Positions 32,251 through 61,421 of a stretch of 61,421 nt of DNA are shown piece by piece. The stretch spans positions 1 through 61,421 of the forward strand of contig JAEZTF010000002.1 of NCBI GenBank assembly GCA_023443725.1, given 5' to 3'. The notes below the pieces were generated by a model that saw only the letters and a program-made list of their open reading frames with translations, did not search any database and was not told the origin of the DNA. Source of the stretch: Candidatus Parcubacteria bacterium (GTDB lineage: Bacteria; Patescibacteriota; Microgenomatia; UBA12405). Within the stretch, counting starts at the first letter, position 1. The number at the start of each line of letters is the position of its first letter. A program made the translations under genes and the position numbers.

Positions 32251-32325
32251 AATTTATTTTAATAACTTAAATTATAGGTCATTATATCCAATGAATTCCT
32301 ATTTGTCAAGTAAAATTGAATATTG

Positions 32326-32354
32326 TTGTTAAAATGATAAATTTTGCTTATACT
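32326..32354 (+). promoter_or_regulatory. candidate promoter at the left edge of the glycosylation island
   Basis: TTGTTA (32326-32331), a 17-nt spacer, then TATACT (32349-32354), then 6 nt to the ATG at 32361. Confidence 0.5.
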
Positions 32355-32360
32355 CTCTTT

Positions 32361-42645: not shown

Positions 42646-42650
42646 TATTC

Positions 42651-44335: not shown

Positions 44336-44350
44336 TGTATTATTAGATTA

Positions 44351-45532: not shown

Positions 45533-45533
45533 T

Positions 45534-46406
45534 ATGAAGATTTCTGTTATTGTTACCAATTGGAACGGTAAAAAACTCCTTGAAAAAAACTTAGAAGCTA
45601 TCATTAAGCTAAGTCCAGAAGCAGAAGAAATAATTTTCACTGACGATGCATCCCAAGATGATAGTGTTGAATATGTTAAAAAACTTCAAAAAAAATATAA
45701 AAAATTAAAAATAATTCATCATCAAAAAAACCAAGGGTTTGGAGAAAACTCAAATTATGCCGTCAAACAAGCAAAAGGGGATTTGGTTGTTCTTTTAAAC
45801 AATGATATTTATCCTCACCCAAAATATATCACCAATAGTCTAAAACATTTTGAAGACAGCAATGTTTTTGGTGTTGGTTTTGCCGAACTTGGTCACGAAA
45901 ATTGGGCCCGTATATTTTGGAAAGATGGTTATCTTCAACATGAACCAGGAATTGATAATCAGAAACCTCATATTTCAGGATGGGTTTCAGGAGGTAGTTC
46001 AATCATTCGAAAAAGTTTATTTGAAAAATTAGGTGGTTTTGACGCAGTTTATCAACCATTTTATTCAGAAGACCTCGATCTAGGCTACCGTGCTTGGAAA
46101 TCTGGTTACACTTTATTATGGGAACCAACAAGTGTAGTCGAACACCATCATGAAACTACTATGTCCAAATTTTCAGTAAATTTTCTAAATTATGTTAAGG
46201 AAAGAAATCGTCTTCTTAACACTTGGCGTAATATTACTGATCCTCAATTATTATCTCTAAATAAGATAGCTCTTGTTGGTAGGGTAATGTCTGGACCAAA
46301 TTATATAAAAATAATTCTAGCCGCCAAAAGACAACTTAAAAAATCCTTACCACCTATTGTTTTTCCCAAACTCACCGATCAAGAAATTTTTCAAAAGTTT
46401 CAATGA
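45534..46406 (+). CDS. GT2 glycosyltransferase
   Basis: ISVIVTNWNG, TDDASQDDS, QGFGENSN, LNNDIYP and YSEDLDLGYRA. Confidence 0.8.
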   Translation: MKISVIVTNWNGKKLLEKNLEAIIKLSPEAEEIIFTDDASQDDSVEYVKKLQKKYKKLKIIHHQKNQGFGENSNYAVKQAKGDLVVLLNNDIYPHPKYITNSLKHFEDSNVFGVGFAELGHENWARIFWKDGYLQHEPGIDNQKPHISGWVSGGSSIIRKSLFEKLGGFDAVYQPFYSEDLDLGYRAWKSGYTLLWEPTSVVEHHHETTMSKFSVNFLNYVKERNRLLNTWRNITDPQLLSLNKIALVGRVMSGPNYIKIILAAKRQLKKSLPPIVFPKLTDQEIFQKFQ

Positions 46407-46873
46407 ATAGAAAAAAATTTTTAATTAGGTTTGGGGTAATTTATTTAATTATTTCCGGTACAATTTTTTTTGGTCTAAAATTTTATTCTCATAAAAAATT
46501 TAACGAGCAATCTTTAAATCAATTAATCACTGGTAAATCAAAATATCGAGATATTACTGATAATTTATGTAAATTCCAAATTTTAGGAGAACCAAAAGTT
46601 GGTAAGGATTATATAAAAGTAAATTTTTGGTGTAATGATGCATCAAAAGCCAGAAGTACTTTTTCTCTTGTAGCTTTTAAAAATAAAACCGCCAACGGTA
46701 TTCTTCAAGAATATGCCAGAATTATTGGTTTTGATTACAATATTATTAAAGATAAAAAATGGTTTTGTACTTTAAATGATCAAGAAATTGATTCAAAAGT
46801 AGGAGAAACAATCGTTCCTTTAGCTAGTACTATTGATTGTTTTGAAACTAAAGGATTACCAAAACATGATTAA
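46403..46873 (+). CDS. hypothetical membrane-anchored protein with four Cys
   Basis: One TM anchor and an extracytoplasmic part with 4 Cys. No motif recognised. Confidence 0.45.
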   Translation: MNRKKFLIRFGVIYLIISGTIFFGLKFYSHKKFNEQSLNQLITGKSKYRDITDNLCKFQILGEPKVGKDYIKVNFWCNDASKARSTFSLVAFKNKTANGILQEYARIIGFDYNIIKDKKWFCTLNDQEIDSKVGETIVPLASTIDCFETKGLPKHD

Positions 46874-48266
46874 AAAAATTTTAAAAGTAATAATTATTCT
46901 TGCCATAACTTTTTTAGCCTTAATTTTAAGAAAAAAAAATTACGCAGAAATTCCTATAGCCGGCCAATCAACTGATGAATATAGTTATTCTTGGGTTGGT
47001 TTATCACTATTCAAAACTGGTGTACCAGTTGGTATTTCTGGACTACCTGGATACGAACATCAATCTTATCACTATATTAATATAGATCGTTTCATGCAAT
47101 TTTTACCTAGTGACCCATTGACAATTAATTATCCTTGGATGGATCATCCGCCATTATTAGGATTAATTACAGGTGGTTATGCTTATCTTAAAGGTGCCGA
47201 TGTTTTTGAAGATACCATTACTGTTTTCATTAGAAAACCAATTATTTTAATTAGTACTATTTCAGTTCTATTAGTTATGGTATATTGTTGGCTTAATTTT
47301 AGCTTTTTAACTGCTGTTATCAGTGGTTTAATTTATGGAACTGCTCCTTTAGTTGTTTTAAGTGGTCGTATGATTCAAGCCGAAAACGCCATCATTCCTT
47401 GTTTTCTTTTGGTAATGATCGCCATGAGTTTGTTTATTAAAAAGAAAAAAGATGTTTGGCTTATAATAGCCTCTATCTTTGCTGGAATTGCTACTCTTTT
47501 TAAATTAACCGGAATAGTTTGTTATCTTTTTATCTTTTTTGCTTTATTAAAAAAACATCAGCATTTAAATAAAGCTTTTTTAAATGATTTACTTTTCTTT
47601 TTAGCCATTAGTTTACCAATCAGCTTTCTTTTCGTTATTTATGGATCCGTTTATGGATTAACCAATTTCAAAAACATTTTGTTTTCCAATGCTACTCGTT
47701 TTTATGGTATTGGACCAAATTTAATACTAGAACTAATTAGAAATCAAAGATTAACTCAACATAAATTTTTACCCGAAGTTTGGGTAATTTCTGGTTGGTT
47801 GATTACTTTAGCGTATATTATCAAAAATCCTAAATCAATTATTGATCAAATACCATTAATGGCCATATTTTCTTACCTAATTGTTTACATTTTCTTTGGT
47901 AGTCAACCTTATGGTTGGTATACTTTTATTTTTTGGCCAATATTAATTATTATTTTATCTAGATTTCTTGTTTTAGGATTTGAAAAAAGAGAGAATTTAA
48001 TTTCTGTCTTTTTATTTTCTATTATGATTTTCGGAGCTAACATCGCTAGACTTTTAGGTATTTTTGAGTTTCAACCATATGCTTCTATTTGGCGTTTTGG
48101 AGTGTCGGGAATTTTATTTTTATTAATTTCTTTTTCAATTTTAAAATTGAAATCAAAAGTTTTAATTAAAGTTTTACTATCTGTTTTATGGTTAGCCATG
48201 ATTTATACCAATTTAAAGTATCTAAATATTATCAATATAGATTTCTGGTGGAATAATTTATCTTAA
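46866..48266 (+). CDS. GT-C-like multi-pass membrane glycosyltransferase
   Basis: First-loop motif GQSTDEYSYSWVG and about 11 TM segments. The ATG at 46866 is preferred. Confidence 0.5.
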   Translation: MIKKILKVIIILAITFLALILRKKNYAEIPIAGQSTDEYSYSWVGLSLFKTGVPVGISGLPGYEHQSYHYINIDRFMQFLPSDPLTINYPWMDHPPLLGLITGGYAYLKGADVFEDTITVFIRKPIILISTISVLLVMVYCWLNFSFLTAVISGLIYGTAPLVVLSGRMIQAENAIIPCFLLVMIAMSLFIKKKKDVWLIIASIFAGIATLFKLTGIVCYLFIFFALLKKHQHLNKAFLNDLLFFLAISLPISFLFVIYGSVYGLTNFKNILFSNATRFYGIGPNLILELIRNQRLTQHKFLPEVWVISGWLITLAYIIKNPKSIIDQIPLMAIFSYLIVYIFFGSQPYGWYTFIFWPILIIILSRFLVLGFEKRENLISVFLFSIMIFGANIARLLGIFEFQPYASIWRFGVSGILFLLISFSILKLKSKVLIKVLLSVLWLAMIYTNLKYLNIINIDFWWNNLS

Positions 48267-49855
48267 TTTATTGTTTTGTATATCAAAAATTGAGGTTCAC
48301 CGTCTGGTTTGTAAATTGTCGTTAGCAACTCTAATTTATCAAAATTATCACCAGCCTTAGGATTAGAAATTGAAACTACATATAAACTATTTTTTTCAAC
48401 TAATTCTTTATTCCAGTCAATATCTCGTGTCCAATATTTTTTTATCTTATTAAGATTGTAATCCTTTTCTTGCATATCCTTTGCTTCAAAAGCCCCAAAA
48501 TAACCAAAATATAATTCAGGTAAACCAGAATATTGACCAGTATTGCCAAACCTAGACTCCATAATTATTTTTTCATATTTACTTTCTATTGGTTTGATAT
48601 ATTCCCAAGCTTGTTTATAACCATATTGATAATTATCGCCAGATATTTTTGGAAAATGATTATAATAGGCAATTCCAAAATAACCAAAGTTGATTAATAT
48701 TCCAATAGTTAAAACAGTAAATATCTTTTTATTTTTATCAAAAATCACCAAAAGACCACCAGCCATTATCAATATAGTTGGGATAATAAAAGCCAAATTT
48801 CTAACCGATGCCGGTTCTCCCCAAGTCAAAGAGGGAACTATTGGACATAGCAACCACCAAGTCAAAAACCAATTCAAATATTTTCCAAAAATTAGTCTCA
48901 TATTAAAAAGACCAACAAACAGTAGAGGAGCAGTAAAAACCAAAAACCAGCCAAAGTTAAATGGTTCATTTTTAGGAAATAAATCCATTCCTTTTCCAAA
49001 AGAAAAGTCCAAACTAAGATAATCAAAATATCTATAGACCGGATCGGCTGAAACTTTTACTATTTTTTTAAATAGATTATCATTACTACTTTTTAAATAA
49101 TCCTGGATAGACGCTTGTTGAAACCATATTTGAGAGGAGGCTCTATTAAAAGGATCTTTCCTGGAAACATTTATAAAATCAAGAAAAATTGGCAGGATTA
49201 CCAAACATGTTGTTATCCATAACAAAAACCATTTTCTTAGCTTAATTTCTTTACGTAAAAGCCATGGCATTAATACCAATACTAAAGGCACTAACCCTTT
49301 TTGTGTATGATAAGCCCAAATAGAAAAACCCAAGAACAAACCAGAAATTATTAAATACCACTGTTTTTGATTTTTTCTAAATAAAAATAAAACATAAATT
49401 CCTAAAGATACTAATATCATTGCCAGATTAGCTTCATAAGCCATTCTAGAAGCAAAAACAGCTTTTGGATTTAAAGCCAGTAAAGTTGCCGACATCAATC
49501 CTAGTTTTTCATTTTTAAAAAACTTACCCATCAAACCAATCATTAAAATTCCTAAAGTTCCTACAAAAGCAGACAAGAATCTAACTCCATATTCATTGTT
49601 TCCAAAAATCCAATTGAAAGGCATATTTAAATAGGCATAAAGAGGCGCTTTATAATCACGATGTGATTTAAACGACAAGGGCCATTTAATTCCATAGCCA
49701 TCTTTACCTGTAGTTCTCAAAGAATAACTATCAAAAGCAATTGAAATTTCATCATTTCCAATATGAGGAGGGTTTTTATCGAGTCCTATCATTCTCAATA
49801 ATCCTCCTATCAAAACTATTACCCCCAACCAAATCCAAAAATATTTTTTAATCAT
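48263..49855 (-). CDS. GT39/ArnT-like membrane glycosyltransferase, subfamily A paralog 1
   Basis: IGNDEISIAFDSYSLRTTGKDGYG..PLSFKSHRDYKAPLYAYL, with DE at 49753-49748. C-terminal YGYKQAWEYI domain. Confidence 0.7.
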   Translation of the reverse strand: MIKKYFWIWLGVIVLIGGLLRMIGLDKNPPHIGNDEISIAFDSYSLRTTGKDGYGIKWPLSFKSHRDYKAPLYAYLNMPFNWIFGNNEYGVRFLSAFVGTLGILMIGLMGKFFKNEKLGLMSATLLALNPKAVFASRMAYEANLAMILVSLGIYVLFLFRKNQKQWYLIISGLFLGFSIWAYHTQKGLVPLVLVLMPWLLRKEIKLRKWFLLWITTCLVILPIFLDFINVSRKDPFNRASSQIWFQQASIQDYLKSSNDNLFKKIVKVSADPVYRYFDYLSLDFSFGKGMDLFPKNEPFNFGWFLVFTAPLLFVGLFNMRLIFGKYLNWFLTWWLLCPIVPSLTWGEPASVRNLAFIIPTILIMAGGLLVIFDKNKKIFTVLTIGILINFGYFGIAYYNHFPKISGDNYQYGYKQAWEYIKPIESKYEKIIMESRFGNTGQYSGLPELYFGYFGAFEAKDMQEKDYNLNKIKKYWTRDIDWNKELVEKNSLYVVSISNPKAGDNFDKLELLTTIYKPDGEPQFLIYKTIN

Positions 49856-50541
49856 TTCAAAAAGATATCAATTAATAACAAAACAAACCAAATCCAAGTT
49901 CTACTTTTAAAATACTCACTCTTTATTCCAAACAAAATTAAGTAAATAACCGAAGGAATGGCTATATAAGCAGCCATAGAACTATCCCCAATTACTCTCA
50001 ATGCTGCAGTAAAAATCACCAATAAAAACCAACCTATTACCCAATAGTTTTGTTTTTTCTTAATAGAGTCGATCAATCCCAAAGAAAATAAATAAAAACC
50101 GGAAAATCCTAGCAATCTTATCCAAAAAGACGGCGAAATTTCTTTCAAAAAATTATTAAACCATGGCAGTAATAATAAATATTGGCCATAAAATATTTTT
50201 CTTATCGAATATGGAATAATTAATCCTTCGTTATAGTAACGATTTATAGATGCAGAAATACCAGGATAACCCAAAAAAGATTGTTCCCAATCAAAACTAA
50301 CAAGTGAATTACTGGTTTTAAAAGCCAATAGTCTGTTTAAATATAAAACCAAAATCACCAAAAACGGAAACACTAACCACTTATATTTTTTTAATCTCCA
50401 AAAAACTAACCAAAAAAATAACATCGCCAATGTCACCCAAATAGGAATTTCCACTATCCTACGACATAAAACAGAAAAACACAATGTCGTCAACAAAAAT
50501 ATCAAGTTTTTTACATTAATCATCTTTTTCATTATAATCAA
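49852..50541 (-). CDS. mini membrane protein matching the central TM module of subfamily A
   Basis: IFYGQYLLLLPWFNNFLKEISPSFWI...FYLFSLGLIDSIKKKQNY matches the internal segment of the large paralogs. It has no DE loop and no C-terminal domain. ATGA junction with the downstream paralog. The start is uncertain (TTG 50541, ATG 50532 or 50523). Confidence 0.55.
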   Translation of the reverse strand: MIIMKKMINVKNLIFLLTTLCFSVLCRRIVEIPIWVTLAMLFFWLVFWRLKKYKWLVFPFLVILVLYLNRLLAFKTSNSLVSFDWEQSFLGYPGISASINRYYNEGLIIPYSIRKIFYGQYLLLLPWFNNFLKEISPSFWIRLLGFSGFYLFSLGLIDSIKKKQNYWVIGWFLLVIFTAALRVIGDSSMAAYIAIPSVIYLILFGIKSEYFKSRTWIWFVLLLIDIFLK

Positions 50542-50567
50542 TCTAGTTTAAATCTATCTGATTTTTT

Positions 50568-51371
50568 ATGAAAAACAAGCTTTCGATTATTATAGTTACT
50601 TGGAATACTGCCAGTATTACTTTAAAGTGTGTGGAAACTATTAATCGTTATATTCCCAATCAAGAAATCATTGTCGTCGACAACGGATCTCAAGATAATA
50701 CTGTTGAAATATTAAAAAAAATCAAAAATGTAAAATTGGTTGAAAATGGTGCTAATCTTGGTTTTGCCAAAGCTAATAATATTGGTTTAAAGTCAGCTAC
50801 TTCTGATTATGTTATTTTTATGAATTCCGATATTGAATTACTTGATAATAGTATTTTAAATATGGTTGATTTTTTAAAAAACAATACAAAAATCGGTATT
50901 ATTGGCCCAAAATTTTTGAATCCAGATTTGTCCCCACAAGCTTCTGTTTTTCCTCCACAAACAATTTTAAATGCTTTCAAAGAATTTTGGCTTGGCCAAA
51001 AAGAAGCTTATTCAAAATATATTCCTCAATCAAAGAGTCCTACTGAAGTTTCTTATATTTCCGGTGGTTGTTTAGCTGTTAACAAAAAATATTTTCAAAA
51101 AATTGGCAAATGGAATGAAACTTATTTTTTCTATTTTGAAGATATGGATCTTTGTCGTCATGTTAGAAAATCTGGTCAAAAAATATATTATTATCCAGAG
51201 TGTCAAATAATTCATCGTCATGGAGCTAGTGGTAAAAATATTGCTCCAGCCAAAGATCAATGGAAAAGACTTATTCCTGGCAGTAAAAAATTTCATGGAA
51301 TCTTAAAACATTATTTAATTAACCTTACTATATGGTCTGGTCAAAAATTGCAAAAACTTTTTCAAAAATAA
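50568..51371 (+). CDS. GT2 glycosyltransferase
   Basis: SIIIVTWN, VDNGSQDNT, LGFAKANN, MNSDIEL and YFEDMDLCRH. Confidence 0.8.
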   Translation: MKNKLSIIIVTWNTASITLKCVETINRYIPNQEIIVVDNGSQDNTVEILKKIKNVKLVENGANLGFAKANNIGLKSATSDYVIFMNSDIELLDNSILNMVDFLKNNTKIGIIGPKFLNPDLSPQASVFPPQTILNAFKEFWLGQKEAYSKYIPQSKSPTEVSYISGGCLAVNKKYFQKIGKWNETYFFYFEDMDLCRHVRKSGQKIYYYPECQIIHRHGASGKNIAPAKDQWKRLIPGSKKFHGILKHYLINLTIWSGQKLQKLFQK

Positions 51372-52630
51372 AAACAATTTTATTAATTGCCCTTTTATTA
51401 AGAATCTTTTTAGTTATCGTTTTTTCTTGGCACCCAGATTTACTCAATCACATAGACTGGGGAAATCGATTTTTAAATTTAGGAGCTAGAAAAATTTATG
51501 AAAATATATTTTGGGGAGTATCTTGGTTAAATCAACCGTTAGGTACAGCTTTACTTTTTGCTTCATGTGCTTTTCTCAAAAATATTATTTTTTCTTTTTT
51601 TGAATTTTTAAATCAAAATATAAGTATTTTTCCATCATCAATTATTCCTATCCTTGAAACAAATCTTCATGTTTGGTTAGTTAAACTACCATTTATTTTA
51701 GCCGATATTGGACTAGGTTTTTTAATTTACAAAATAGTTTATAAATTTAAACCTAAATTAGCTACTTTAGCTGCTGCTATTTTTTTATTTAATCCAGTTT
51801 TAATTTACAATTCTGCCATTTGGGGACAAACCGATTCATTAATCAATTTGTTAGCCATTAGTGGATTTTATTTTATTTTTCAAAAAAAATATTTTGCTGG
51901 TATTTGGCTATTTTTATTCGGATTTCTTTTTAAAATGTCTTTAATTATTTATTTACCTATATTTGGGTTACTTCTAATTAAGCAAATCAAAGATTGGAAA
52001 AAAATGATTTTACCAATCTTATTATTCATAGTATTTTTGTTTTTAATTGCTCTACCTTTCAAACTAGATGGTTTTACATCTTTTCGTTGGCTATGGTACA
52101 TGTATACCAATCGGGTTTTAGTTCGACAGGGGAGTATGCTCAACGGTAATGCTTTTAATCTTTGGACACTAATCTTTAGTATCGATTTATCGAAGTCAGA
52201 ATTTACCAAAGTTTTCGGTCTGTCTTATCAATTAATTGGCCGAATTTTGTTTATCTTATCTCTAATTCCTATTTGTTTAAAATTTATTAAAACCAAATTA
52301 ACTATCTCTAGTCTTTTTAGCGCTTTAGTTTTATCCGCCTTTAGTTGCTTTATTTTTATGACTAATATGCATGAAAGATATCTTTATCCTATATTTCCAC
52401 TAATTAGCGTTTTGCTGTTTGTACCAAAAACAAAATTTAATCTAAAAAATCTTATTATTCTCTCTGTTATCCATTTTCTAAATCTCTACAACCTTTGGTT
52501 TTATCCCCAAATTAATCTACTAAAAAACTTTCTTATTTCCAATAACTTCCTCACTTGTCGGGTTTTATCAGCTATACTAATAATTGTTTACATAAAATAC
52601 TTTATTGATTATTTAAGAAGTGAAAATTGA
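51332..52630 (+). CDS. GT-C-like membrane protein (Gpi18/DUF2029-like class)
   Basis: HPDLLNHIDWGNRF and IWGQTDSLINLL, with about 10 TM segments. Overlaps the upstream GT2 by 40 nt. Confidence 0.5.
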   Translation: MVWSKIAKTFSKIKTILLIALLLRIFLVIVFSWHPDLLNHIDWGNRFLNLGARKIYENIFWGVSWLNQPLGTALLFASCAFLKNIIFSFFEFLNQNISIFPSSIIPILETNLHVWLVKLPFILADIGLGFLIYKIVYKFKPKLATLAAAIFLFNPVLIYNSAIWGQTDSLINLLAISGFYFIFQKKYFAGIWLFLFGFLFKMSLIIYLPIFGLLLIKQIKDWKKMILPILLFIVFLFLIALPFKLDGFTSFRWLWYMYTNRVLVRQGSMLNGNAFNLWTLIFSIDLSKSEFTKVFGLSYQLIGRILFILSLIPICLKFIKTKLTISSLFSALVLSAFSCFIFMTNMHERYLYPIFPLISVLLFVPKTKFNLKNLIILSVIHFLNLYNLWFYPQINLLKNFLISNNFLTCRVLSAILIIVYIKYFIDYLRSEN

Positions 52631-54281
52631 TCGTAAATCGATATTACTCATTGGTCTTTTAGTGGTTTCTTTTCTAGTAAGAATTTATCGGATTAATACT
52701 CTCAGTCTTTTTGGTGATGAAATTGATGTTGGATATCAAGCATATTCTCTCTTAAATACCACCAAAGATTACAAAGGTAATTTTCTTCCCACTTATATTC
52801 AATCTCTTTCCGAATCACGAGCTCCTCTTTTAATTTACACCTCTATTCCTGGTATTAAACTATTTGGTTTAACCGAAACAGGTGTTCGCATTACTCCAAT
52901 AATCTTTGGTGTTTTAAGTATTTACCTTCTTTATAAACTAGTATTTTTACTCTCAAATTCATTTTCATTAGCTTTTTTAAGTTCATTAGTTATGTCTTTT
53001 TCTCCGTGGCATTTTCATTACAGTCGAACTTCTTTTGAAGTTACTTTATTACTTTCACTTATTCTTTTGGGTGTTTATTTATTTCAAAAATTCATTCAAC
53101 AAAACAAATCATATTATCTTTATCTATCAATAACCGCTTTTGGTTTAACTTTTTATACCTACAACACTGCCAATATTTTTGTACCTTTATTAGTTGTTGG
53201 TTTAATAATAAGTAATTGGAAAAAGTTTTTTTCAATTCTTAGTTTTAAGAAAATAATCATTAGTCTTGGATTAACTCTTCTTTTTATTATTCCTATTCTA
53301 ACTCAAATTTTTTCCGGTCAAGCAGCTAATAGATTTGGCTTAGTCAATATTTTTAATGACCCAAAAACTATTAATCAAATTATTGATCGTCGAACTTCAT
53401 TTTCAGCTACCAGTCCACAACAAGAAAGATTTTTTTACAATAAGATTACCGGATGGACTACTGCTTTTTTTCAAAATTATTTAGAAGCCATATCGCCATT
53501 AGTTTTATTTAATAAAGGCGATACTATCAATATTCGCCACAATATCCCTCAGTTTGGTTTATTATTTTTATCTTTTGCCCCACTTCTATTTATTGGTTTA
53601 ATTAAATCACCCAAAAACAAACTCCGACAATTAATGTTCTATTGGTTGATAATTTCTCCGATTGCTTCTTCGTTAACTACTCAAGGAGGTCATCATCCAA
53701 CTAGACTTTTTGTTATGCTTCCTCCTTTAGTTTATTTTATCGCTCAGGGAATTTTAGCTTTAGCATCTTCAAAAACATTTTCAAAACTAATTTTAGTAAT
53801 ACTTAGTTTTACTTTTATATTTGAACTTTCTTTTTATTGTCATGAATATTTTTATCGCTATCCAAAAGATTCTTTTGAACATTGGAATTATGGTTATAAA
53901 GAAATTTTAACCAATATTCCAAAACAATATTCTCGTCTTTATATCAGCAACACTAAATATAATTCATTATTACCTTTTGTTTTTTATCAAAAACTTTTAC
54001 AAAATCCTTTGAATGATTCATCCCAAAAAAGTATAGTTTTTAACTATAATGGTTTTTCTTTAAAAGAAAATATTTATTTTATTGATAATTGGGGTGATCG
54101 TGACGTATTAAATCAAGTAAGCAATAATTCACAAACAAGTGACACTTTTATTCTTTTTCAAGGTAAAGATATTCCCGGTGATATGGACTTTTCACAAAAA
54201 CCATTAGAAGGATTTAAAACAATTAAAACAGTATATTATCCCAATAAAACTATATTTGCTCAAATTATCCAAAAAATATGA
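52620..54281 (+). CDS. GT39/ArnT-like membrane glycosyltransferase, subfamily A paralog 2
   Basis: LFGDEIDVGYQAYSLLNTTKDYKG, with DE at 52716-52721. C-terminal WNYGYKEIL domain. GTG start overlapping the upstream gene. Confidence 0.7.
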   Translation: MKIDRKSILLIGLLVVSFLVRIYRINTLSLFGDEIDVGYQAYSLLNTTKDYKGNFLPTYIQSLSESRAPLLIYTSIPGIKLFGLTETGVRITPIIFGVLSIYLLYKLVFLLSNSFSLAFLSSLVMSFSPWHFHYSRTSFEVTLLLSLILLGVYLFQKFIQQNKSYYLYLSITAFGLTFYTYNTANIFVPLLVVGLIISNWKKFFSILSFKKIIISLGLTLLFIIPILTQIFSGQAANRFGLVNIFNDPKTINQIIDRRTSFSATSPQQERFFYNKITGWTTAFFQNYLEAISPLVLFNKGDTINIRHNIPQFGLLFLSFAPLLFIGLIKSPKNKLRQLMFYWLIISPIASSLTTQGGHHPTRLFVMLPPLVYFIAQGILALASSKTFSKLILVILSFTFIFELSFYCHEYFYRYPKDSFEHWNYGYKEILTNIPKQYSRLYISNTKYNSLLPFVFYQKLLQNPLNDSSQKSIVFNYNGFSLKENIYFIDNWGDRDVLNQVSNNSQTSDTFILFQGKDIPGDMDFSQKPLEGFKTIKTVYYPNKTIFAQIIQKI

Positions 54282-55930
54282 AAAATAAAATAATTCTGGT
54301 CTCCATATTAGTAGTTGGTGCTTTTTTAAGACTATTTCATCTTTCAAATTTACCCAATTCTTATACTCCAGACGAATTGGCTCAAGGTTATACCGCTTAT
54401 TCCATTATTCAAACTGGTAAAGATGAGTGGGGCAACTCTAATTGGCTAAATCTTCGTTCTTTTGGAGACTATAAACCACCAATACAAACTCTTCTTATGA
54501 TTCCTAGTGTAAAATTATTTGGTTTAAATACTTTTGCTGTTCGTTTTCCCAATGCCTTTTTATCTATTTTTACTATCTTACTAACATATTTAATTGCTTC
54601 TAGCTTATTCAAAAATTCAACTATAAGTATTTTATCGGCCTTATTTGTGGCCATTTCCCCATGGAGTTTACCTATGTCTCGAATTGCTTTAGAAGCCAAT
54701 TTAGTAGTTTTTATAATTTCTTTAGGCACATACCTTCTACTGTTGGCCCAAAAGAAAAATAATCTATATTTAACTATTCTTTCTGGAATGCTTTTTGGTC
54801 TTAGCTTATTTACCTATCATTCAGCCAAAATTTTTACTCCATTATTTTTAATTTTCTTTATTTTTTATCAAAAAATTTATCAACAAAAAAAAGTTTTAAT
54901 AACTGTTTTGATTTCCTTTTTATTTTTTCTGTTTTTTAATTTTTATAACAACCAACTAGTTGAAACTAGTCGTACTGGAGATATTGCTATTTTTAATCCT
55001 ACTGATAAATGGTCTTATGTATCTGACAGTCAATTTGAAATGACTCAATCAGGTCTACCATATCTTGTTGTTAAAATGTTTTATAACAAAATTATTTACC
55101 TTTACGAAACATTTGCTCACAACTATTTTTCTTATCTTTCACCCCAATTTTTAATTACTCAAGGAGCCGGTGAGACCACTTATGGCATGCTTCCTGGTTA
55201 TGGAGTTTTAGGTTTAATTCCTGGCATTGGTTTTTTCTTATCTCTAATATTTTTAATTCAATCAAAAGGGGATAAGAGTAAAAGAAATATATATTTCCTC
55301 TTAACTACCATTTTGATACCACCATTAATTGCCGCTATTGCCAAAGGGCAATATTCTGCCAACCGAGTTTCGTTAATGATGCCCTTTATTCAAATTTTTT
55401 CTGCATTTGGGTTAGTTAGTTTTATTTCAAAAATAAATTCTAAATTTCAATTTATTAGCAAATTGGCGATAACTTCAGTTTATATCTTTACTAGTTTGAT
55501 TTTTTTACAAAGATATTATTTTCAAGGAAATCAAATATTAGCTCCAGGTATGCTTTTTGGTCATCAACAAGCCAATGAATTTATAAAAAATCAACAAGTC
55601 GATCAAATTATTTATTCTCGTAAATTATCGGAACCCCAAGCATATGTAAACTTTTTTAACCAAGTTAATCCCTTAGTAGTTCAGTCAGAATCTGTTAATT
55701 GGTTAAAATATCAAAAAGACGGTCTGTCATTCTTAGATCAATTAGGCGAATATAATTTAAATAAATTTATTTTTCGAGAGATTAATATAGTTTCCGATTC
55801 TCAACTACCAAATGCTTTAATAATTGGTCGACCAGAAGAATTTAGAGATACCAAACCAGATTTTATTATCTACTATCCATCCAAATCAAAAGTAGAAGCT
55901 TCTATTTATATCTATAAAACTAAAAAATGA
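54278..55930 (+). CDS. GT39/ArnT-like membrane glycosyltransferase, subfamily A paralog 3
   Basis: TPDELAQGYTAYSIIQTGKDEWG..SFGDYKPP, with DE at 54371-54376. ATGA junction. Confidence 0.7.
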   Translation: MKNKIILVSILVVGAFLRLFHLSNLPNSYTPDELAQGYTAYSIIQTGKDEWGNSNWLNLRSFGDYKPPIQTLLMIPSVKLFGLNTFAVRFPNAFLSIFTILLTYLIASSLFKNSTISILSALFVAISPWSLPMSRIALEANLVVFIISLGTYLLLLAQKKNNLYLTILSGMLFGLSLFTYHSAKIFTPLFLIFFIFYQKIYQQKKVLITVLISFLFFLFFNFYNNQLVETSRTGDIAIFNPTDKWSYVSDSQFEMTQSGLPYLVVKMFYNKIIYLYETFAHNYFSYLSPQFLITQGAGETTYGMLPGYGVLGLIPGIGFFLSLIFLIQSKGDKSKRNIYFLLTTILIPPLIAAIAKGQYSANRVSLMMPFIQIFSAFGLVSFISKINSKFQFISKLAITSVYIFTSLIFLQRYYFQGNQILAPGMLFGHQQANEFIKNQQVDQIIYSRKLSEPQAYVNFFNQVNPLVVQSESVNWLKYQKDGLSFLDQLGEYNLNKFIFREINIVSDSQLPNALIIGRPEEFRDTKPDFIIYYPSKSKVEASIYIYKTKK

Positions 55931-57504
55931 AATCAAAATTATTAATTGTTTTAGTTTTATTACTTGGTCTTTTTATTCGTTTCTATCAGATCAATCAACT
56001 TCCACCAAGTTTAAATTGGGATGAAATTTCTCATGGCTACAACGCTTATTCAATTCTTAAGACCGGTAAGGACGAATGGGGGATAAGTTTTCCTACAATT
56101 TTCCGCTGTTTTGGTGATTTTAAATTACCTTTATATATCTATCTCACAGTTCCTTCAGTTTTATTTTTTGGTCTCAATCAATTTTCAATTAGATTGGTTT
56201 CTATTTTGGCAGGATCCATTGTTCCGTTAATTATCTATTTAATTCTTAAAAAAATAATTAATAAGAAAAGTATTATTCCATATTTTGGTTTAATTATTAC
56301 TGCTTTTTCTTCAACAACTATTTTTCTTTCGCGAATTGCCTTAGAAGCTAATCTTTTTATGCTTTTGTTTTGTTTAAGTTTATATTTTTTAATTAATCAT
56401 AAATTTGGTTGGAGTAGCTTTATATTTGGTTTAAGTCTTTTTACTTACAATAGTAGTCGAGTTCTATTACCTTTTTATTTTATTTCATTGATTTACTTAT
56501 TAATTACAACTAAGTTTAATTTCAAAAAAAACTTTTATAAATTCTTACCTTTTATTTTTTTAGTTGGGTTAGCTTCATTCCAAATATTAAATCAGTCAGG
56601 ACAAGCTCGTTATCAATGGGTTTCATTGTTAGATTCAGGCTCTATTAATCATATCAACGAACTTCGACAAATTTATCCCCGATTTTTAGTCAATAAAGTT
56701 ACTTATTTTACTTTGGCAGCTACCAAAAATTATCTAAGTCATTTCAATCCTCAATTTTTATTTTTTAACGGTGGTAATCATTATCAATTCAGTTTGCCAG
56801 GATTCTATCTTATTTCTCCATTATTTATTCCTTTTTTATTATTAGGATTAATTTATATTTTTAAAAATTTTAAACAATCAAATCTTCAATTAATTCTTTT
56901 TTATTGGCTAATTTCTCCTCTTCCATCAAGTATTACTAGAGATGCTCCACACATTCTCAGAAGTATAATCTTTATTCCTACTACAATAATTATCATCAGT
57001 CTTGGTTTTATTTATCTACAAAAAAAACATTCAAAAATATCTGTTTTTTATTTAATAGCCACTATTCTAATTGGACTAGCAACTTTTTGGCCTAAATATA
57101 TTGATTACTCAAAAAACTATTCATCTTCCTGGCAATATGGCTACCAGCAAACGGTTAATTTTATTAAAGATAATTATCACGATTATGATCAAATAATTTT
57201 TACCAAAAAGTATGGAGAAGCTCATGAGTTTATTCTTTTTTATTGGCCTTGGAACCCATCATCGTATCAAAAAGATCCCAAGTTAAATTGGGATTATCAC
57301 GCCACTTGGTATTGGGTCAATGCTTTTGATAAATTCAAGTTTATCAATGATTGGGAGATTCAAGAGAAAACTAAATCGGTAAATTCAAAAACACTTCTAA
57401 TCACTTCACCAAACAATTACAATAAAGACAATAGTCGGCTAATTAAAACTATTAATTTTTTAAATGGTCAAGTTGCTTTTGAAATATTAGAAATAAATCC
57501 ATGA
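55927..57504 (+). CDS. GT39/ArnT-like membrane glycosyltransferase, subfamily A paralog 4
   Basis: NWDEISHGYNAYSILKTGKDEWG..CFGDFKLP, with DE at 56020-56025. WQYGYQQTVNFI. ATGA junction. Confidence 0.7.
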   Translation: MKSKLLIVLVLLLGLFIRFYQINQLPPSLNWDEISHGYNAYSILKTGKDEWGISFPTIFRCFGDFKLPLYIYLTVPSVLFFGLNQFSIRLVSILAGSIVPLIIYLILKKIINKKSIIPYFGLIITAFSSTTIFLSRIALEANLFMLLFCLSLYFLINHKFGWSSFIFGLSLFTYNSSRVLLPFYFISLIYLLITTKFNFKKNFYKFLPFIFLVGLASFQILNQSGQARYQWVSLLDSGSINHINELRQIYPRFLVNKVTYFTLAATKNYLSHFNPQFLFFNGGNHYQFSLPGFYLISPLFIPFLLLGLIYIFKNFKQSNLQLILFYWLISPLPSSITRDAPHILRSIIFIPTTIIIISLGFIYLQKKHSKISVFYLIATILIGLATFWPKYIDYSKNYSSSWQYGYQQTVNFIKDNYHDYDQIIFTKKYGEAHEFILFYWPWNPSSYQKDPKLNWDYHATWYWVNAFDKFKFINDWEIQEKTKSVNSKTLLITSPNNYNKDNSRLIKTINFLNGQVAFEILEINP

Positions 57505-58115
57505 ATACTAAACTTAAAATATTTATGTTTCTTTTGATTATTTCACCATTATTTTGGTGGCAATTCGTAAATCACAACAATCCCTTTATTGAATATTCCA
57601 AAACCAGTTTTTATATCAAAAACAAAACTACTTCTATTTTAAGAAATACTAAATATATCGACGAATCTAGATGGAATGATATAACTCAAGGCAGAAAATT
57701 AGTTGGTCTCTTTTTCTACAACAAAAGTCGTTTTGTGTTTGATGAAGCTTTTTATTTTCTCAATATTCTAAATCCTAGATTTTATTTTCAATCTGGATCT
57801 GGTCAAACAGATTCTCCTCCTCAAACAGAACCAATACCTTTTTTACTTCTTCCGATTTCATTTTTTGGTATTTTCAGACTAATCAAAAACAAAAAACATA
57901 AAATATTACTTTTATTTCCAATTTCTTGTTTCTTAAGTTATATAACAGGTCAATCAAGTCTTTATTTTTCTTTTCCAGTGGCATCTTTATATATATATTC
58001 CAGTTCATATGAACTTTCCTATTGGAAGAAAAAACCATTATTATGGTTTTTAATCACTCTTGTAGTATATAGTTTATTTTTGTTTTTCAAAGTTATTTAC
58101 ATTTCAAATTTATGA
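57501..58115 (+). CDS. mini membrane protein matching the central TM module of subfamily A
   Basis: LFFYNKSRFVFDEAFYFLNILNPRFYFQSG...PFLLLPISFFGIFRLIKNKKHK aligns with FYSQPIFFIRNFLSRYFNHFSPRFLAFEG...ILYPSLIFLVIGLFFGLSRKK of paralog 6. ATGA junctions on both sides. Confidence 0.55.
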   Translation: MNTKLKIFMFLLIISPLFWWQFVNHNNPFIEYSKTSFYIKNKTTSILRNTKYIDESRWNDITQGRKLVGLFFYNKSRFVFDEAFYFLNILNPRFYFQSGSGQTDSPPQTEPIPFLLLPISFFGIFRLIKNKKHKILLLFPISCFLSYITGQSSLYFSFPVASLYIYSSSYELSYWKKKPLLWFLITLVVYSLFLFFKVIYISNL

Positions 58116-59728
58116 AAAAGAATATTATATTAATAATAATCTTTTCAGTTAGTGTCTTGTTTAGATTTTGGAATCTAATCAAATATCCAGTCAGCCTTTC
58201 AATGGATGAAACTGCTATTGCCTACAATGCCTATTCAATTCTTAAAACTAGTACCGATGAATATGGTGAATTTCTTCCCTTAGCCTTTAAATCAACAGGG
58301 GATTACAAACCTCCAGTAAATGTTTACCTTACTGTTCCATCGATATACTTATTTGGGTTAAATGAATTTGCTACCAGATTTCCATCAGCTTTACTCGGAT
58401 CATTAACACCAATTATATTAGTGCTTTTATTAATAAAATTAAAAATAAAGCCTACCGCTGCTTATCTAACTGGTATTTGGTTAGCTATTTTACCTTGGCA
58501 TATCCATTTTTCCCGCGCTAGTTTTGAAGCAATTACTGCCTTATTTTTTTTAGTTTTTGGTACATACATGTTTATCAATTGGATTGAAAATCAAAAAACT
58601 TGGAAAATAATCATTTGGATAATATCTTTTAGTTTGTCAGTTTGGGCTTATCACGCCGAAAGACTTTTTGTTCCTTTATTTGTATTAGGATTAATAGTTT
58701 TCTATCGTCGTCAAATAAATATTCTAAAAAATAAAAAACAATTAATTATTGGATTAATTACTTTGTCTATTTTTGCCATTCCTTTTATAAAACTTACGTT
58801 TTTAACTCCAGCCATAAAAACACGAGCTGTATCCACCTCAATCATTAGAGAAACAACTCTTAGTAATTCTTTACACAATGGAATTTACAAAAACAATTTA
58901 GACTTTATTTTTAATAACGATTATTACTTAATTTTCAGACATTGGTTAGGAAAATATCTTAATTATTTTAATTTTGAATTTTTATTTTGGAATGGGCTAG
59001 AGTTAACAAAGATAGGCTATCCAAACTCAGGATTACTTTATTTAATTGATTTACCTCTTTTCTTTTTTGGTGTTTTTTCTTTAGTAAAATCTAAAGATAA
59101 ACTTATAAAAAAAATGGTTTTATTGTGGTTTTTATTGGGTCCGTTACCTGCATCTTTGACCATGAATGAGCATCATCCTCTTCGAGCTTTAGTCTGGATA
59201 CCAGCATTTGCAATAATTATTGCCAAAGGATATGAAACACTTATAGAATTAAAATCTAAATTAATTTTAATTTTTTATTTTATTATTTTATCCATTAACG
59301 TTTTTTATTTTACTGATATTTACTTTTACCAATTTCCAAAACATTTTTCTGAATATTGGCAATATGGTTTTAAAGAGATAGGTAATTATGTTTGTCAAAA
59401 TAAAGACAAATATCAAGAAATTATAATTTCTGATACTTTTGGTAGTGACGGTCCACTTAACACTGGATTACCTTATCTTTATGTTTTATTCTATTGTCAG
59501 ATGGATCCCCAAAAATTTATAAATGCTCGATCAACTAGTGATAGATTATATGTAGAAAATATATCATTTCACCGAATTACTTGGAGAGTAGACTCAACCA
59601 AACCAAATACTCTTTTAATTGCTTCTCCATGGGATTTTTTGGATGCCAAAATACCAGAGGATCAAATTATTAAAAAAATAAATTTTTTAAACAATAAACC
59701 AGCTTTTTGGTTTGTAAAGACTAATTAA
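58112..59728 (+). CDS. GT39/ArnT-like membrane glycosyltransferase, subfamily A paralog 5
   Basis: SMDETAIAYNAYSILKTSTDEYG..STGDYKPP, with DE at 58205-58210. WQYGFKEIGNYV. Confidence 0.7.
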   Translation: MKKNIILIIIFSVSVLFRFWNLIKYPVSLSMDETAIAYNAYSILKTSTDEYGEFLPLAFKSTGDYKPPVNVYLTVPSIYLFGLNEFATRFPSALLGSLTPIILVLLLIKLKIKPTAAYLTGIWLAILPWHIHFSRASFEAITALFFLVFGTYMFINWIENQKTWKIIIWIISFSLSVWAYHAERLFVPLFVLGLIVFYRRQINILKNKKQLIIGLITLSIFAIPFIKLTFLTPAIKTRAVSTSIIRETTLSNSLHNGIYKNNLDFIFNNDYYLIFRHWLGKYLNYFNFEFLFWNGLELTKIGYPNSGLLYLIDLPLFFFGVFSLVKSKDKLIKKMVLLWFLLGPLPASLTMNEHHPLRALVWIPAFAIIIAKGYETLIELKSKLILIFYFIILSINVFYFTDIYFYQFPKHFSEYWQYGFKEIGNYVCQNKDKYQEIIISDTFGSDGPLNTGLPYLYVLFYCQMDPQKFINARSTSDRLYVENISFHRITWRVDSTKPNTLLIASPWDFLDAKIPEDQIIKKINFLNNKPAFWFVKTN

Positions 59729-61360
59729 ATGAAAATAAAAAATAAAATATTATTAGCTTTAATAGTTGTAATTGCATTTTTAATCAGAATTTATCAGGTT
59801 AATAATTACCCTTCATTGCTTTGGGATGAGGCAGCCTTAGGTTACAATGCTTATTCAATTTTAGAAACTGGTAAAGATGAATATGGTCAAATATTACCAA
59901 TTATTTTTAAATCTTTTGGTGACTATAAACCAGGATTTTATGTCTATCTTTGTCTCCCTTTTATAAAACTTTTTGGCTTAAATCAATTAACTACTAGATT
60001 ACCTTCCGTTATATTAGGTGCCTTACTACCTCTTCTAATATATTTATTAATTAAAGAAATTAGTCCAAAATCACACAAAGTTGCTCTAATAGCTGCCCTA
60101 ATAACTGCTTTTAATCCATACAATATTCACTTTAGTCGAGGTGCTTGGGAAACCAACATTCTTACTTTTGAACTTGTTTTAGCTTGTTTTTATTTTTATC
60201 GTTATCTGAATCGTCAAAAATCAAAATATTTATTACTTTCTGCCATTATTTTCGGACTTACTCTTTTCACCTATCAAGCCGGTAAAATGATTAGTTTATT
60301 TCTTATACTTATTCTTTTCATTTTAAATCTTAAATCATTAAATATAAAAAAGACTATTGTAAATTTCATCATTCCTTTAGGTATTTTTGCTTTACCCATA
60401 GCTTACGGCTTACTTTTTGGCAACAATTCTAATCGTTTAAAAGTAGTTAGTCTCTTTTCTTATCCTAGATCAGAAATCGAAACCCAAACTATCATCAATG
60501 AAACCAACAAACTAGACTATACTGTTTTTTACAGCCAACCAATATTTTTTATTAGAAATTTTCTTTCTCGTTACTTTAATCATTTTTCTCCTAGATTCCT
60601 TGCTTTTGAAGGTGACTGGCAAAATCCTCGACATTCAGCTCCATACATTGGTGTCATTCTTTATCCAAGTTTAATATTTCTAGTTATTGGGTTATTTTTT
60701 GGTTTAAGTCGAAAAAAAATAGATAATTTAAATTTATTCTTTTTTCTTTGGTTAATCGTGGCCCCTATTCCAGCTGCACTAACCAGAGATTCTATTCAGG
60801 CAGTTCGTTCTATGTCGTTATCTATTCCGCTAATATATTTTATTTCACTAGGATTATTTGCATTTTTTGAAAAATTTAAGTCTAAGTTTATTATTTTAAT
60901 AATAATTTTAGTCTATCTTTTATCTTTCAAATATTATTTTGATTTATATCTCAATCATATGGTTCAAAAGAGTCCAATTGATTATCTTTATGGATATAAG
61001 CAAGCTGTTAATTATGTTATTAAAAATCAAAATCGTTTTAATCGTATTTATATAACTGATTACTATCATCAGCCATATATTTATTATTTGTTTTATTCCC
61101 AATATCCACCTCAAAAATATCAACAACAAGCAAAATTAGAAGACGCTTCGCTTGATACTGGTAAGGTTAAAATAATCGATAATATTCAATTTGAAACCGC
61201 TCAATTCAATTTTATTAAAGATCACCCTGGAACTTTAGGAATTTTTTCTCAAGAAGAAATATATCGTCAGGGGATAGATAAAAAACCAGAATTTAATCAA
61301 TTTATTCCACTTAGTAATGTTAGTGGTATTTCCACTTTTTATGCATATGAAAATCCATAA
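59729..61360 (+). CDS. GT39/ArnT-like membrane glycosyltransferase, subfamily A paralog 6
   Basis: LWDEAALGYNAYSILETGKDEYG..SFGDYKPG, with DE at 59825-59830. YLYGYKQAVNYV. TAAATG junction. Confidence 0.7.
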   Translation: MKIKNKILLALIVVIAFLIRIYQVNNYPSLLWDEAALGYNAYSILETGKDEYGQILPIIFKSFGDYKPGFYVYLCLPFIKLFGLNQLTTRLPSVILGALLPLLIYLLIKEISPKSHKVALIAALITAFNPYNIHFSRGAWETNILTFELVLACFYFYRYLNRQKSKYLLLSAIIFGLTLFTYQAGKMISLFLILILFILNLKSLNIKKTIVNFIIPLGIFALPIAYGLLFGNNSNRLKVVSLFSYPRSEIETQTIINETNKLDYTVFYSQPIFFIRNFLSRYFNHFSPRFLAFEGDWQNPRHSAPYIGVILYPSLIFLVIGLFFGLSRKKIDNLNLFFFLWLIVAPIPAALTRDSIQAVRSMSLSIPLIYFISLGLFAFFEKFKSKFIILIIILVYLLSFKYYFDLYLNHMVQKSPIDYLYGYKQAVNYVIKNQNRFNRIYITDYYHQPYIYYLFYSQYPPQKYQQQAKLEDASLDTGKVKIIDNIQFETAQFNFIKDHPGTLGIFSQEEIYRQGIDKKPEFNQFIPLSNVSGISTFYAYENP

Positions 61361-61421
61361 AATAATTTTGCCATTAATAATTGTTATTGCTTTTTTAATT
61401 CGTTTTATTGATATTAGTAAT
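61347..61421 (+). CDS. start of a further subfamily A paralog (3' truncated by the window edge)
   Basis: The ATG at 61347 opens MKIHKIILPLIIVIAFLIRFIDISN. This has the same N-terminal pattern as the paralogs (for example MKIKNKILLALIVVIAFLIRIYQVNN) and overlaps the upstream gene by 14 nt. This ORF is not in the supplied track. Confidence 0.55.
   Translation, partial: MKIHKIILPLIIVIAFLIRFIDISN

Follow-up and report, generated by a model that had tools for sequence, protein, structure and literature searches.

A conserved, colinear array of PMT_2-type GT-C glycosyltransferase paralogues in a Microgenomates glycan locus

Why does a bacterium of a reduced lineage keep seven related membrane glycosyltransferase genes close together, and what might their products do? 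The question is raised by contig JAEZTF010000002.1 of assembly GCA_023443725.1 (Candidatus Parcubacteria bacterium; GTDB Patescibacteriota, Microgenomatia, UBA12405), of which positions 1–61,421 were analyzed as a whole and are referred to as the window. Candidate Phyla Radiation (CPR) genomes measure approximately 1 Mb and encode very few biosynthetic pathways, and CPR envelopes are almost uncharacterised. The ~11 kb occupied by the seven paralogues, within a glycan locus of ~29 kb, are notable in such a reduced lineage. The answer considered probable here is that the seven copies, designated A to G, are distinct GT-C glycosyltransferases, predicted to be catalytically competent and specialised as extracytoplasmic transferases for non-redundant steps of one surface-glycan pathway in Microgenomates.

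An earlier note on this DNA had described a seven-copy array, with six full-length open reading frames (ORFs) of 525–553 amino acids (aa) and a seventh one starting at 61347. All six ORFs were present. The array is real but larger than described, as two half-size paralogues (h1 and h2) and up to six distant GT-C-like genes are found in the same window. The array genes and the best promoter match are given below, with the codons of the Asp-Glu (DE) pair in the first loop and the bit scores for the Pfam models PMT_2 (PF13231, gathering cut-off 26.1 bits) and PMT (PF02366, gathering cut-off 22.7 bits).

48263–49855, minus strand: paralogue A, 530 aa, full-length GT-C, lineage-specific; DE codons 49748–49753; PMT_2 43.0 bits.
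49852–50541, minus strand: h2, 229 aa from a TTG start (223 aa as called elsewhere); hhalign probability 67%, E = 5e-5, columns 242–383.
50510–50538, plus strand: best sigma-70-like promoter match of the region, TTTACA-17-TATAAT (11/12), directly upstream of the glycosyltransferase family 2 (GT2) gene at 50568.
52620–54281, plus strand: paralogue B, 553 aa; DE 52716–52721; PMT_2 46.3 and PMT 30.4 bits.
54278–55930, plus strand: paralogue C, 550 aa; DE 54371–54376; PMT_2 46.4 and PMT 35.7 bits.
55927–57504, plus strand: paralogue D, 525 aa, member of the near-universal D-F-G core; DE 56020–56025; PMT_2 26.9 bits.
57501–58115, plus strand: h1, 204 aa, between D and E; hmmsearch 22.9 bits, E = 2.6e-8, family profile positions 212–405.
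58112–59728, plus strand: paralogue E, 538 aa, lineage-specific; DE 58205–58210; PMT_2 33.0 and PMT 43.4 bits.
59729–61360, plus strand: paralogue F, 543 aa, the copy that was modelled; DE 59825–59830; PMT_2 51.9 and PMT 55.2 bits.
61347–61421, plus strand: paralogue G, first 25 codons, cut by the window end; family profile 17.9 bits.

The DE pair is located at codons 32–36 of each copy, and its nucleotide coordinates were confirmed. The junctions were also as reported earlier: ATGA joins B to C (54278), C to D (55927), D to h1 (57501), and h1 to E (58112), the E/F junction at 59729 is TAAATG, and F and G overlap by 14 nucleotides (nt) at 61347. On the minus strand, a further ATGA joins h2 and A. 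Just upstream of 50568 is the promoter-like site with the best match, and no plus-strand terminator was found inside the gene chain, so the chain from 50568 appears operon-like, as had been proposed; the promoter is a consensus match only, and sites of this kind are no more numerous in the region than expected by chance. G is represented in the window by 25 codons only, but its N-terminus matches a full 541-aa gene at the same position in the syntenic locus of a relative (L003:11607–13232), and the fragment was therefore accepted as the seventh copy. The array genes are 78–88% identical to their L003 orthologues.

Hidden Markov model (HMM) searches, which the earlier note had proposed as a check, returned both PMT and PMT_2 matches. 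All six full copies scored above the PMT_2 cut-off, D marginally (26.9 against 26.1 bits), and PMT was passed by B, C, E, and F; A and D had no listed PMT match. In none of the copies did PMT_4TMC or MIR match at E ≤ 0.01, nor was an STT3 Pfam match obtained. In NCBIfam, A, B, and F matched TIGR03663 (Agl23) best, with 40.5, 41.4, and 63.0 bits, respectively; these scores are well below the curated cut-off (126.25 bits), and TIGR03663 membership was rejected. When the family profile was run against all PDB chain sequences, only Pmt4 was returned (E = 0.13, with the family DE aligned to the DE of Pmt4), and ArnT was not retrieved.

Paralogue F was modelled with AlphaFold2 from an alignment of 13 sequences (predicted local distance difference test [pLDDT] 82.9, predicted template-modelling score [pTM] 0.84). 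In the model, 11 long membrane helices are seen together with a first loop that is helical, a long loop connecting transmembrane helices 7 and 8 (TM7 and TM8), and an alpha/beta C-terminal domain. All 38 best Foldseek matches of the model in the PDB were GT-C enzymes (probability 1.00, template-modelling scores 0.30–0.54, 10–16% identity), belonging to STT3/AglB/PglB, ArnT, ALG9/ALG12, DPY19, Pmt4, Emb, and AftB. The lowest E-values (~1e-6) were those of STT3/AglB/PglB, with template-modelling scores of ~0.5 or below as for the other families, and the best symmetric match was ArnT (5ezm, 0.54/0.54). The GT-C fold expected in the earlier note was thus recovered by modelling, and the predicted fold of the family is GT-C_A, without a close solved family. 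The C-terminal domain modelled in isolation (pLDDT 86) had no significant match in the PDB (best E = 0.1, template-modelling score ≤ 0.39). A W-x-Y-G motif (W 65%, Y 77%, and G 94% conserved) opens this domain; it is without the Asp of WWDYG, and an oligosaccharyltransferase reading of the motif was rejected because of the weak conservation and the absent Asp.

Membership in ArnT (GT83) was rejected on the lack of a PDB sequence match and of other arn genes, the score of 0.54 reflecting the shared fold only. Membership in STT3/PglB/AglB (GT66) was rejected as well, given the absence of an STT3 Pfam match, of the Asp in the motif, and of any oligosaccharyltransferase match to the C-terminal domain. 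The designation "GT39/ArnT-like subfamily" used in the earlier note was too specific: PMT_4TMC and MIR are absent, neither ArnT nor PMT was reached by sequence at significant E, and the template-modelling scores are ~0.5 to STT3, ArnT, ALG9/12, DPY19, and Pmt4 alike. Rather than a true member of GT39, ArnT, or STT3, the family is one previously uncharacterised PMT_2-type GT-C subfamily, with no characterised member and no solved structure. It comprises 6,283 clusters at 50% identity with E ≤ 1e-30. Homologues are labelled "glycosyltransferase family 39" or "phospholipid carrier-dependent glycosyltransferase" in databases, and close homologues carry the name Candidatus Shapirobacteria (Microgenomates group, Patescibacteria).

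Conservation was followed in relatives, for which one genome per GTDB species was scanned (>566 relatives) and the best 80 loci were examined; the conservation set contained 340 family ORFs from 82 loci. The DE pair was invariant in 340/340 ORFs, 261 of which had not been picked via a DE-containing search pattern, and approximately 35 further positions were near-universal. Short cytoplasmic loops contain 2–5 Lys/Arg per ~12 residues and short external loops 0–2. Because of this distribution (the positive-inside rule), the N-terminus is predicted to be inside, and loop 1 with the DE pair, the long loop, and the C-terminal domain outside, in agreement with the extracytoplasmic DE loop proposed earlier.

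The copies are 25–34% identical to each other at the protein level (A 25–30% to the others). Mean pairwise identity among the seven paralogues was 47% in loop 1, 26–29% in the membrane core, 21% in the long loop, and 23% in the C-terminal domain. The more than 50% loop-1 identity that had been estimated by eye for the copies at 55927 (D) and 59729 (F) was measured as 57–58%. The C-terminal domains had been described as much more diverged, which the values do not bear out (23% against 26–29% in the membrane core); only loop 1 stands out, as conserved. Orthogroups were obtained by average-linkage clustering, and the ratio of within- to between-orthogroup conservation was 1.38 for loop 1, 1.34 for TM2–7, 1.90 for the long loop, and 1.87 for the C-terminal domain. 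Orthogroup-specific signal is thus as strong in the long loop (profile positions 233–312) as in the C-terminal domain. Since the ratios are highest there, these two large, predicted extracytoplasmic regions appear to be where each orthogroup fixed its own sequence, as expected of specificity determinants. Ratios of non-synonymous to synonymous substitutions (dN/dS) against L003 were 0.07–0.12 for every full copy and 0.08–0.15 for the C-terminal domains, values that are rough because dS is ~1 and near saturation; they point to present-day selection that is purifying, not diversifying, on all copies. The earlier picture of a conserved catalytic loop and diversified C-terminal domains therefore holds in part: the orthogroup signal fits it, but the signal is shared equally by the long loop, and present selection on the C-termini seems purifying.

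The same comparisons bear on whether the tandem copies could be an artefact of assembly or strain variants joined end to end, an idea that might be prompted by the low coverage of one source contig (4.8x) and by at least three assemblies ending at nearly one point inside the seventh gene. Besides the low protein identity, the most conserved segment has a nucleotide identity of only 51–71% between copies, with exact runs of ≤18 nt, and the same array was assembled independently in at least 80 genomes, with own orthologues for each position. The artefact explanation was rejected on these grounds and is hardly credible; the copies are old paralogues. The contig ends of the window, ERZ24910825 NODE_163, and ERZ27268862 k141_146191 lie within ~17 nt of each other; these three assemblies stop 75–92 nt into G, shortly ahead of the segment that encodes the conserved DEAALGYNAYS. 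No intragenomic repeat of >15 nt that would explain the shared break in G was found in the window.

All of the best 80 loci were of the Microgenomates type (Shapiro-, Woese-, Collier-, Ames-, and Blackburnbacteria). The orthogroups contained 79 (F), 77 (G), 72 (D), 38 (C), 31 (B), 6 (E), and 2 (A) members; F was present by construction of the search, D and G were not. In nearly every locus of judgeable length, 3–7 family members were found within ±10 kb. The order of the named orthogroups was always B-C-D-(E)-F-G and never permuted across ~80 Microgenomates genomes, the commonest patterns being DFG, BCDFG, and CDFG, while BCDEFG also occurs. D-F-G is nearly universal, B and C are optional, and A and E are lineage-specific; an orthologue of A is found in locus L048 and clusters as orthogroup A. 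Conservation extends to a wider block, which reads (GT2), (432-aa protein), B, C, (584-aa protein), D, F, G, GT2, GT4, and further on an ArnC/PpgS-like GT2, GT2, B12-radical SAM, and GT2. Because the order and the wider block are conserved across these lineages, the array is older than their divergence, with D-F-G as its core and the other members as modular additions. Such variable content fits modular pathway steps, and a D-F-G core with optional A, B, C, and E argues against an obligate seven-subunit complex. Many of the species-representative metagenome-assembled genomes in GTDB that have a Microgenomates-type locus (L008–L016, L019, L030, L047, and others) are titled "uncultured Gammaproteobacteria bacterium" or "Clostridia bacterium" and are evidently mislabelled.

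The half-size paralogues resemble the second part of the membrane domain. h1 matches TM7, the long loop, and TM8–11, and is without the DE pair or the catalytic N-terminal module and without the C-terminal domain. h2 is a membrane protein resembling the family long loop and TM8–10, likewise without DE and C-terminal domain; its homology to the family is moderately supported by the profile alignment. The two gave only a marginal BLAST match to each other (E = 8e-4, two-sequence search). h1 adjoins E in 5/5 genomes having E in the array (L003, L007, L015, L016, and L025), h2 adjoins A in 2/2 genomes having A (L003 and L048), and each overlaps the start of its partner copy by ATGA. With dN/dS values of 0.114 (h1) and 0.125 (h2) against L003, both appear to be maintained partners, not decaying remnants.

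The array is part of one glycan locus that extends from 32316 to the window end (~29 kb), continues downstream, and contains up to 13 GT-C-like genes. Its other genes are the following.

32316–33089, plus strand: GT2, ArnC/PpgS/Dol-P-hexose-synthase-like (NCBIfam ArnC 4e-21, PpgS, and DPhHxTase, all below equivalog cut-offs); candidate donor synthase.
33082–34560, plus strand: distant GT-C of another PMT_2 subfamily, 492 aa; PMT_2 37.8 and PMT 28.3 bits.
34588–35352, plus strand: GT2, PgfS/ArnC-like (NCBIfam PgfS 1e-17, ArnC 1e-14, sub-threshold); second candidate donor synthase.
35333–36871, plus strand: 512-aa membrane protein, distant GT-C relative; family HMM 25 bits, columns 310–437, GDE motif in loop 1.
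36886–38640, plus strand: 584-aa membrane protein, probably a distant PMT_2-type GT-C; several orthologues (~60% identity) carry PF13231.
38613–40055, plus strand: Wzx-type (MOP) polysaccharide flippase; Polysacc_synt_3 2e-42.
40013–41692, plus strand: 559-aa polytopic membrane protein with no assigned family; faint archaeal STT3 match, E = 0.002.
41710–46406, plus strand: five cytoplasmic glycosyltransferases, GT2 (41710–42645), GT2 (42651–43559), GT2 (43550–44335), GT4 (44351–45532), and GT2 (45534–46406).
46833–48266, plus strand: distant GT-C of the PMT_2 type, 477 aa, convergent with A; PMT_2 44.2 bits.
50568–51371, plus strand: GT2, 267 aa, first gene of the plus-strand chain; Glycos_transf_2 1.8e-29; syntenic in many Microgenomates loci.
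51332–52630, plus strand: 432-aa polytopic membrane protein, probably a distant GT-C; no Pfam match, hhalign probability 76%, E = 2e-5 over TM2–6.

By hhalign, similarity to the family was not significant for the 584-aa protein and not supported for the 559-aa protein. A homologue of the 584-aa protein is located between C and D in many relatives, and the 432-aa protein is conserved next to B or C. Beside Wzx, neither a Wzy nor a ligase was recognised, and the 559-aa protein is a candidate for the polymerase, ligase, or oligosaccharyltransferase that the locus would otherwise lack. A third ArnC/PpgS-like GT2 is found just downstream in relatives (L003:15116–15922). The 432-aa ORF, taken from its first ATG, overlaps the preceding GT2 by 40 nt (51332–51371); the gene callers of L003 start it 15 nt further in, and the true start is uncertain. 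A 505-aa polytopic protein without a Pfam match (6548–8065, minus strand) is 27% identical to the GT-C at 33082–34560; this GT-C-like gene adjoins uvrC, 25 kb from the cluster. A B12-binding radical SAM enzyme (HpnJ/BchE-like, sub-threshold) is encoded at L003:16838–18927 and at equivalent positions in most loci, a few genes downstream of the array, where a methyltransferase sometimes comes next; possible targets for modification by the radical SAM enzyme are a sugar and the lipid carrier.

The window has ~30% G+C and also carries housekeeping genes (UvrABC, RelA/SpoT, SecA, RF2, and tRNA synthetases) and envelope genes of the Gram-positive type (LCP ligase, FtsX, M23 peptidase, and a DUF11 protein with a sortase signal). 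The LytR-CpsA-Psr (LCP) protein (27322–28350, plus strand) is located a few kb upstream of the glycan locus, beside FtsE/FtsX and the M23 peptidase. In Gram-positive bacteria, LCP enzymes join undecaprenyl-linked glycopolymers to peptidoglycan, which makes a wall-linked product plausible. The DUF11-repeat protein (31615–32250, minus strand) is encoded immediately upstream of the glycan locus, in the opposite orientation. It ends in a sortase-type cell-wall sorting signal made up of IPNTG, a hydrophobic segment, and the basic tail RKYARGY, and is a possible surface glycoprotein candidate. At 41–1384 (plus strand), dockerin type I and esterase domains occur in one protein, an unusual combination for a CPR genome of reduced size, suggesting that the protein attaches to a partner bearing cohesin.

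In the pathway favoured here, the ArnC/DPM1-like GT2s of the locus would synthesise a polyprenyl-phosphate-sugar donor at the cytoplasmic face, from where it would be flipped across the membrane. On the outer face, each paralogue would take the sugar from this donor and attach it at one particular site of the surface glycoconjugate under construction, with the cytoplasmic GT2/GT4 enzymes and the Wzx flippase supplying a lipid-linked acceptor. The donor type, the sequential action, and the acceptor are inferred from homology and locus context. Wzx, the LCP ligase, the radical-SAM gene, and the large number of cytoplasmic glycosyltransferases make a glycan linked to lipid or wall a more probable acceptor than protein. 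Several points weigh against this pathway. The assignments of donor, acceptor, and product rest wholly on homology and context, and none of the candidate donor synthases reaches an NCBIfam equivalog cut-off. Wzx was the only flippase among the window ORFs of ≥120 aa that were scanned (a few nested or overlapping ones left out), none being of the GtrA, SMR, or MATE type, and the window yielded no priming phosphoglycosyltransferase. The near-saturated dS, the protein O-mannosyltransferase nature of the significant Pfam matches, the gene coupling, and the top Foldseek E-values count on the same side, the last three through the explanations weighed below.

A protein acceptor is a serious rival, although we regard it as unlikely. 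The paralogues would then be protein O-glycosyltransferases like PMT, streptococcal PgfM1, or PgtC2, each having its own surface-protein substrates (pilins, S-layer, or sortase-anchored proteins) or adding successive sugars. PMT and PMT_2 are the sole significant sequence-family matches and are compatible with a protein acceptor, and in the weak PDB match the DE aligns with that of Pmt4; the structural similarity to Pmt4, however, is no better than that to ArnT, STT3, or ALG, and PMT_4TMC and MIR are absent. One neighbouring GT2 best matches PgfS, and the streptococcal GtrB/PgtC2 and PgfS/PgfM1 pairs glycosylate Ser/Thr-rich regions extracellularly (PMC12041528). The protein with the sortase signal adjoins the locus, but no Ser/Thr-rich acceptor candidate was identified, and the array is set among cytoplasmic GT2/GT4, Wzx, and B12-radical SAM genes, which are typical of polysaccharide loci. 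Pre-assembled oligosaccharides might instead be transferred en bloc from undecaprenyl-pyrophosphate carriers by oligosaccharyltransferase-, ligase-, or polymerase-like copies. The lowest Foldseek E-values, those of STT3, AglB, and PglB, make structure alone compatible with this, W-x-Y-G is at the position of WWDYG, and Wzx is present with no recognised Wzy or ligase. The STT3 Pfam match is absent, however, the motif is moderately conserved and without Asp, the C-terminal domain alone has no structural match, and the template-modelling score of ~0.5 is the same as for other GT-C families, so that en-bloc transfer is clearly less likely than the pathway above. Just as improbable is that some members or half-size ORFs are flippases or scramblases for lipid-linked sugars, like the archaeal PMT_2-like Agl23, which when purified translocated a lipid-linked oligosaccharide in liposomes (PMC11182771). 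The TIGR03663 model "flippase activity-associated protein Agl23" is the best NCBIfam match of three copies, and a dedicated polyprenyl-phosphate-sugar flippase was not found among the scanned ORFs; the 40–63 bits are nevertheless far under the cut-off of 126, and DE together with ~35 other residues on the extracytoplasmic side is near-invariant, as for a catalytic site.

An obligate hetero-oligomeric membrane complex of all paralogues, or of a D-F-G core and the pairs h1-E and h2-A, like Pmt1-Pmt2 and EmbA-EmbB, would be compatible with the favoured pathway and has about the same low probability as a protein acceptor. Tight translational coupling by overlapping stop and start codons along the chain and a gene order that is invariant over deep divergence, with D, F, and G almost always together, are compatible with a physical complex as well. 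Both half-size paralogues show conservation and seem to be under purifying selection, each always stands beside one particular full copy, and solved GT-C heterodimers are among the structural matches (6p25, Pmt1-Pmt2; 7bvc, EmbA-EmbB). Against it, array content varies by lineage (DFG, CDFG, BCDFG, and BCDEFG), which makes a fixed seven-subunit complex unlikely, and the catalytic DE is kept in all copies, none of which looks like a pure scaffold. Somewhat more speculatively still, the lineage-specific B, C, E, and A might join the D-F-G core in a physical hetero-oligomeric GT-C "assembly line" outside the cytoplasm, with h1 and h2 as non-catalytic adaptors, the gene order reflecting ordered co-translational assembly, and a Microgenomates-specific envelope polymer as the product. 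If this were true, the product would be central to Microgenomates surface biology or host attachment.

The enzyme class of the paralogues is already known, as the database labels demonstrate. What appears to be new is the subfamily, the unmatched C-terminal domain, the colinear array of five to seven genes across Microgenomates, and the conserved half-size partners. In the literature on membrane glycosyltransferases of CPR, Patescibacteria, Microgenomates, or Shapirobacteria, no paper on the array was found, and a recent perspective on Patescibacteria does not mention glycans. Five named core paralogues in fixed order across Shapiro-, Woese-, Collier-, Ames-, and Blackburnbacteria would imply a complex, conserved, strongly selected, and undescribed surface glycoconjugate. 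Such an ancient paralogue set is also suited to asking how GT-C acceptor specificity evolves and whether truncated paralogues are partner subunits.

Among known systems, PMT enzymes (GT39; Pmt1-Pmt2 and Pmt4) resemble the array in the N-terminal module, which matches PMT_2 in all six full copies and PMT in four, in the DE pair in the first extracytoplasmic loop, and in 11 transmembrane helices with N-in, C-out topology, and PMT paralogue families and heterodimers are known; the array differs in having no MIR or PMT_4TMC, in matching Pmt4 by profile only at E = 0.13, and in being set in a polysaccharide locus. ArnT (GT83) is the undecaprenyl-phosphate-L-Ara4N lipid A transferase and has 13 transmembrane helices, against 11 in the family model. 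Its likeness to the array consists of the best symmetric structural match (5ezm), the PMT_2 family, and an ArnC-like GT2 in the array locus, whereas a PDB sequence match and the other arn genes are lacking. To our knowledge, CPR bacteria are not expected to make lipid A, which makes it an unlikely acceptor.

The array locus also resembles three-component systems (GtrA/GtrB/Gtr*, CsbB/GtcA/YfhO, PgfS/PgfM, and GT136) in combining GT2 candidates and GT-Cs. Such systems work in three stages: a GT2 synthesises the polyprenyl-phosphate sugar, flipping carries it over the membrane, and a GT-C then attaches it to an acceptor outside the cell, either a glycan or a protein (PMC11127046; PMC12041528). 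They normally have one, occasionally two, GT-Cs per locus, whereas five to seven and several others are chained here, and their GtrA, SMR, or MATE flippase was not recognised among the scanned ORFs of the array locus. The lumenal ALG3/ALG9/ALG12 enzymes (and ALG6/8/10) of the endoplasmic reticulum are related GT-Cs that each use one defined Dol-P sugar in a fixed order on a lipid-linked glycan, and ALG9 and ALG12 structures are among the Foldseek matches of F. The ALG genes are eukaryotic, dispersed, and of other glycosyltransferase families (GT22 and GT58), and the analogy is functional only. In the mycobacterial Emb/Aft/Mpt systems (embC-embA-embB, GT53 and others), the Emb genes are tandem paralogous GT-Cs in one operon, a polyprenyl-phosphate sugar donor is used on the outer face for a stepwise wall glycan, and EmbA-EmbB is a heterodimer; the role proposed for the array is drawn by analogy. 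Emb structures are also among the matches of F, but there are three Emb paralogues of ~1,050–1,100 aa with C-terminal carbohydrate-binding modules and no significant sequence similarity to the array family, which has five to seven paralogues of ~540 aa, a small alpha/beta C-terminal domain, and two half-size partners. By analogy, the lumenal ALG3/9/12 series and the mycobacterial Emb/Aft/Mpt enzymes may be taken as the closest counterparts of the array.

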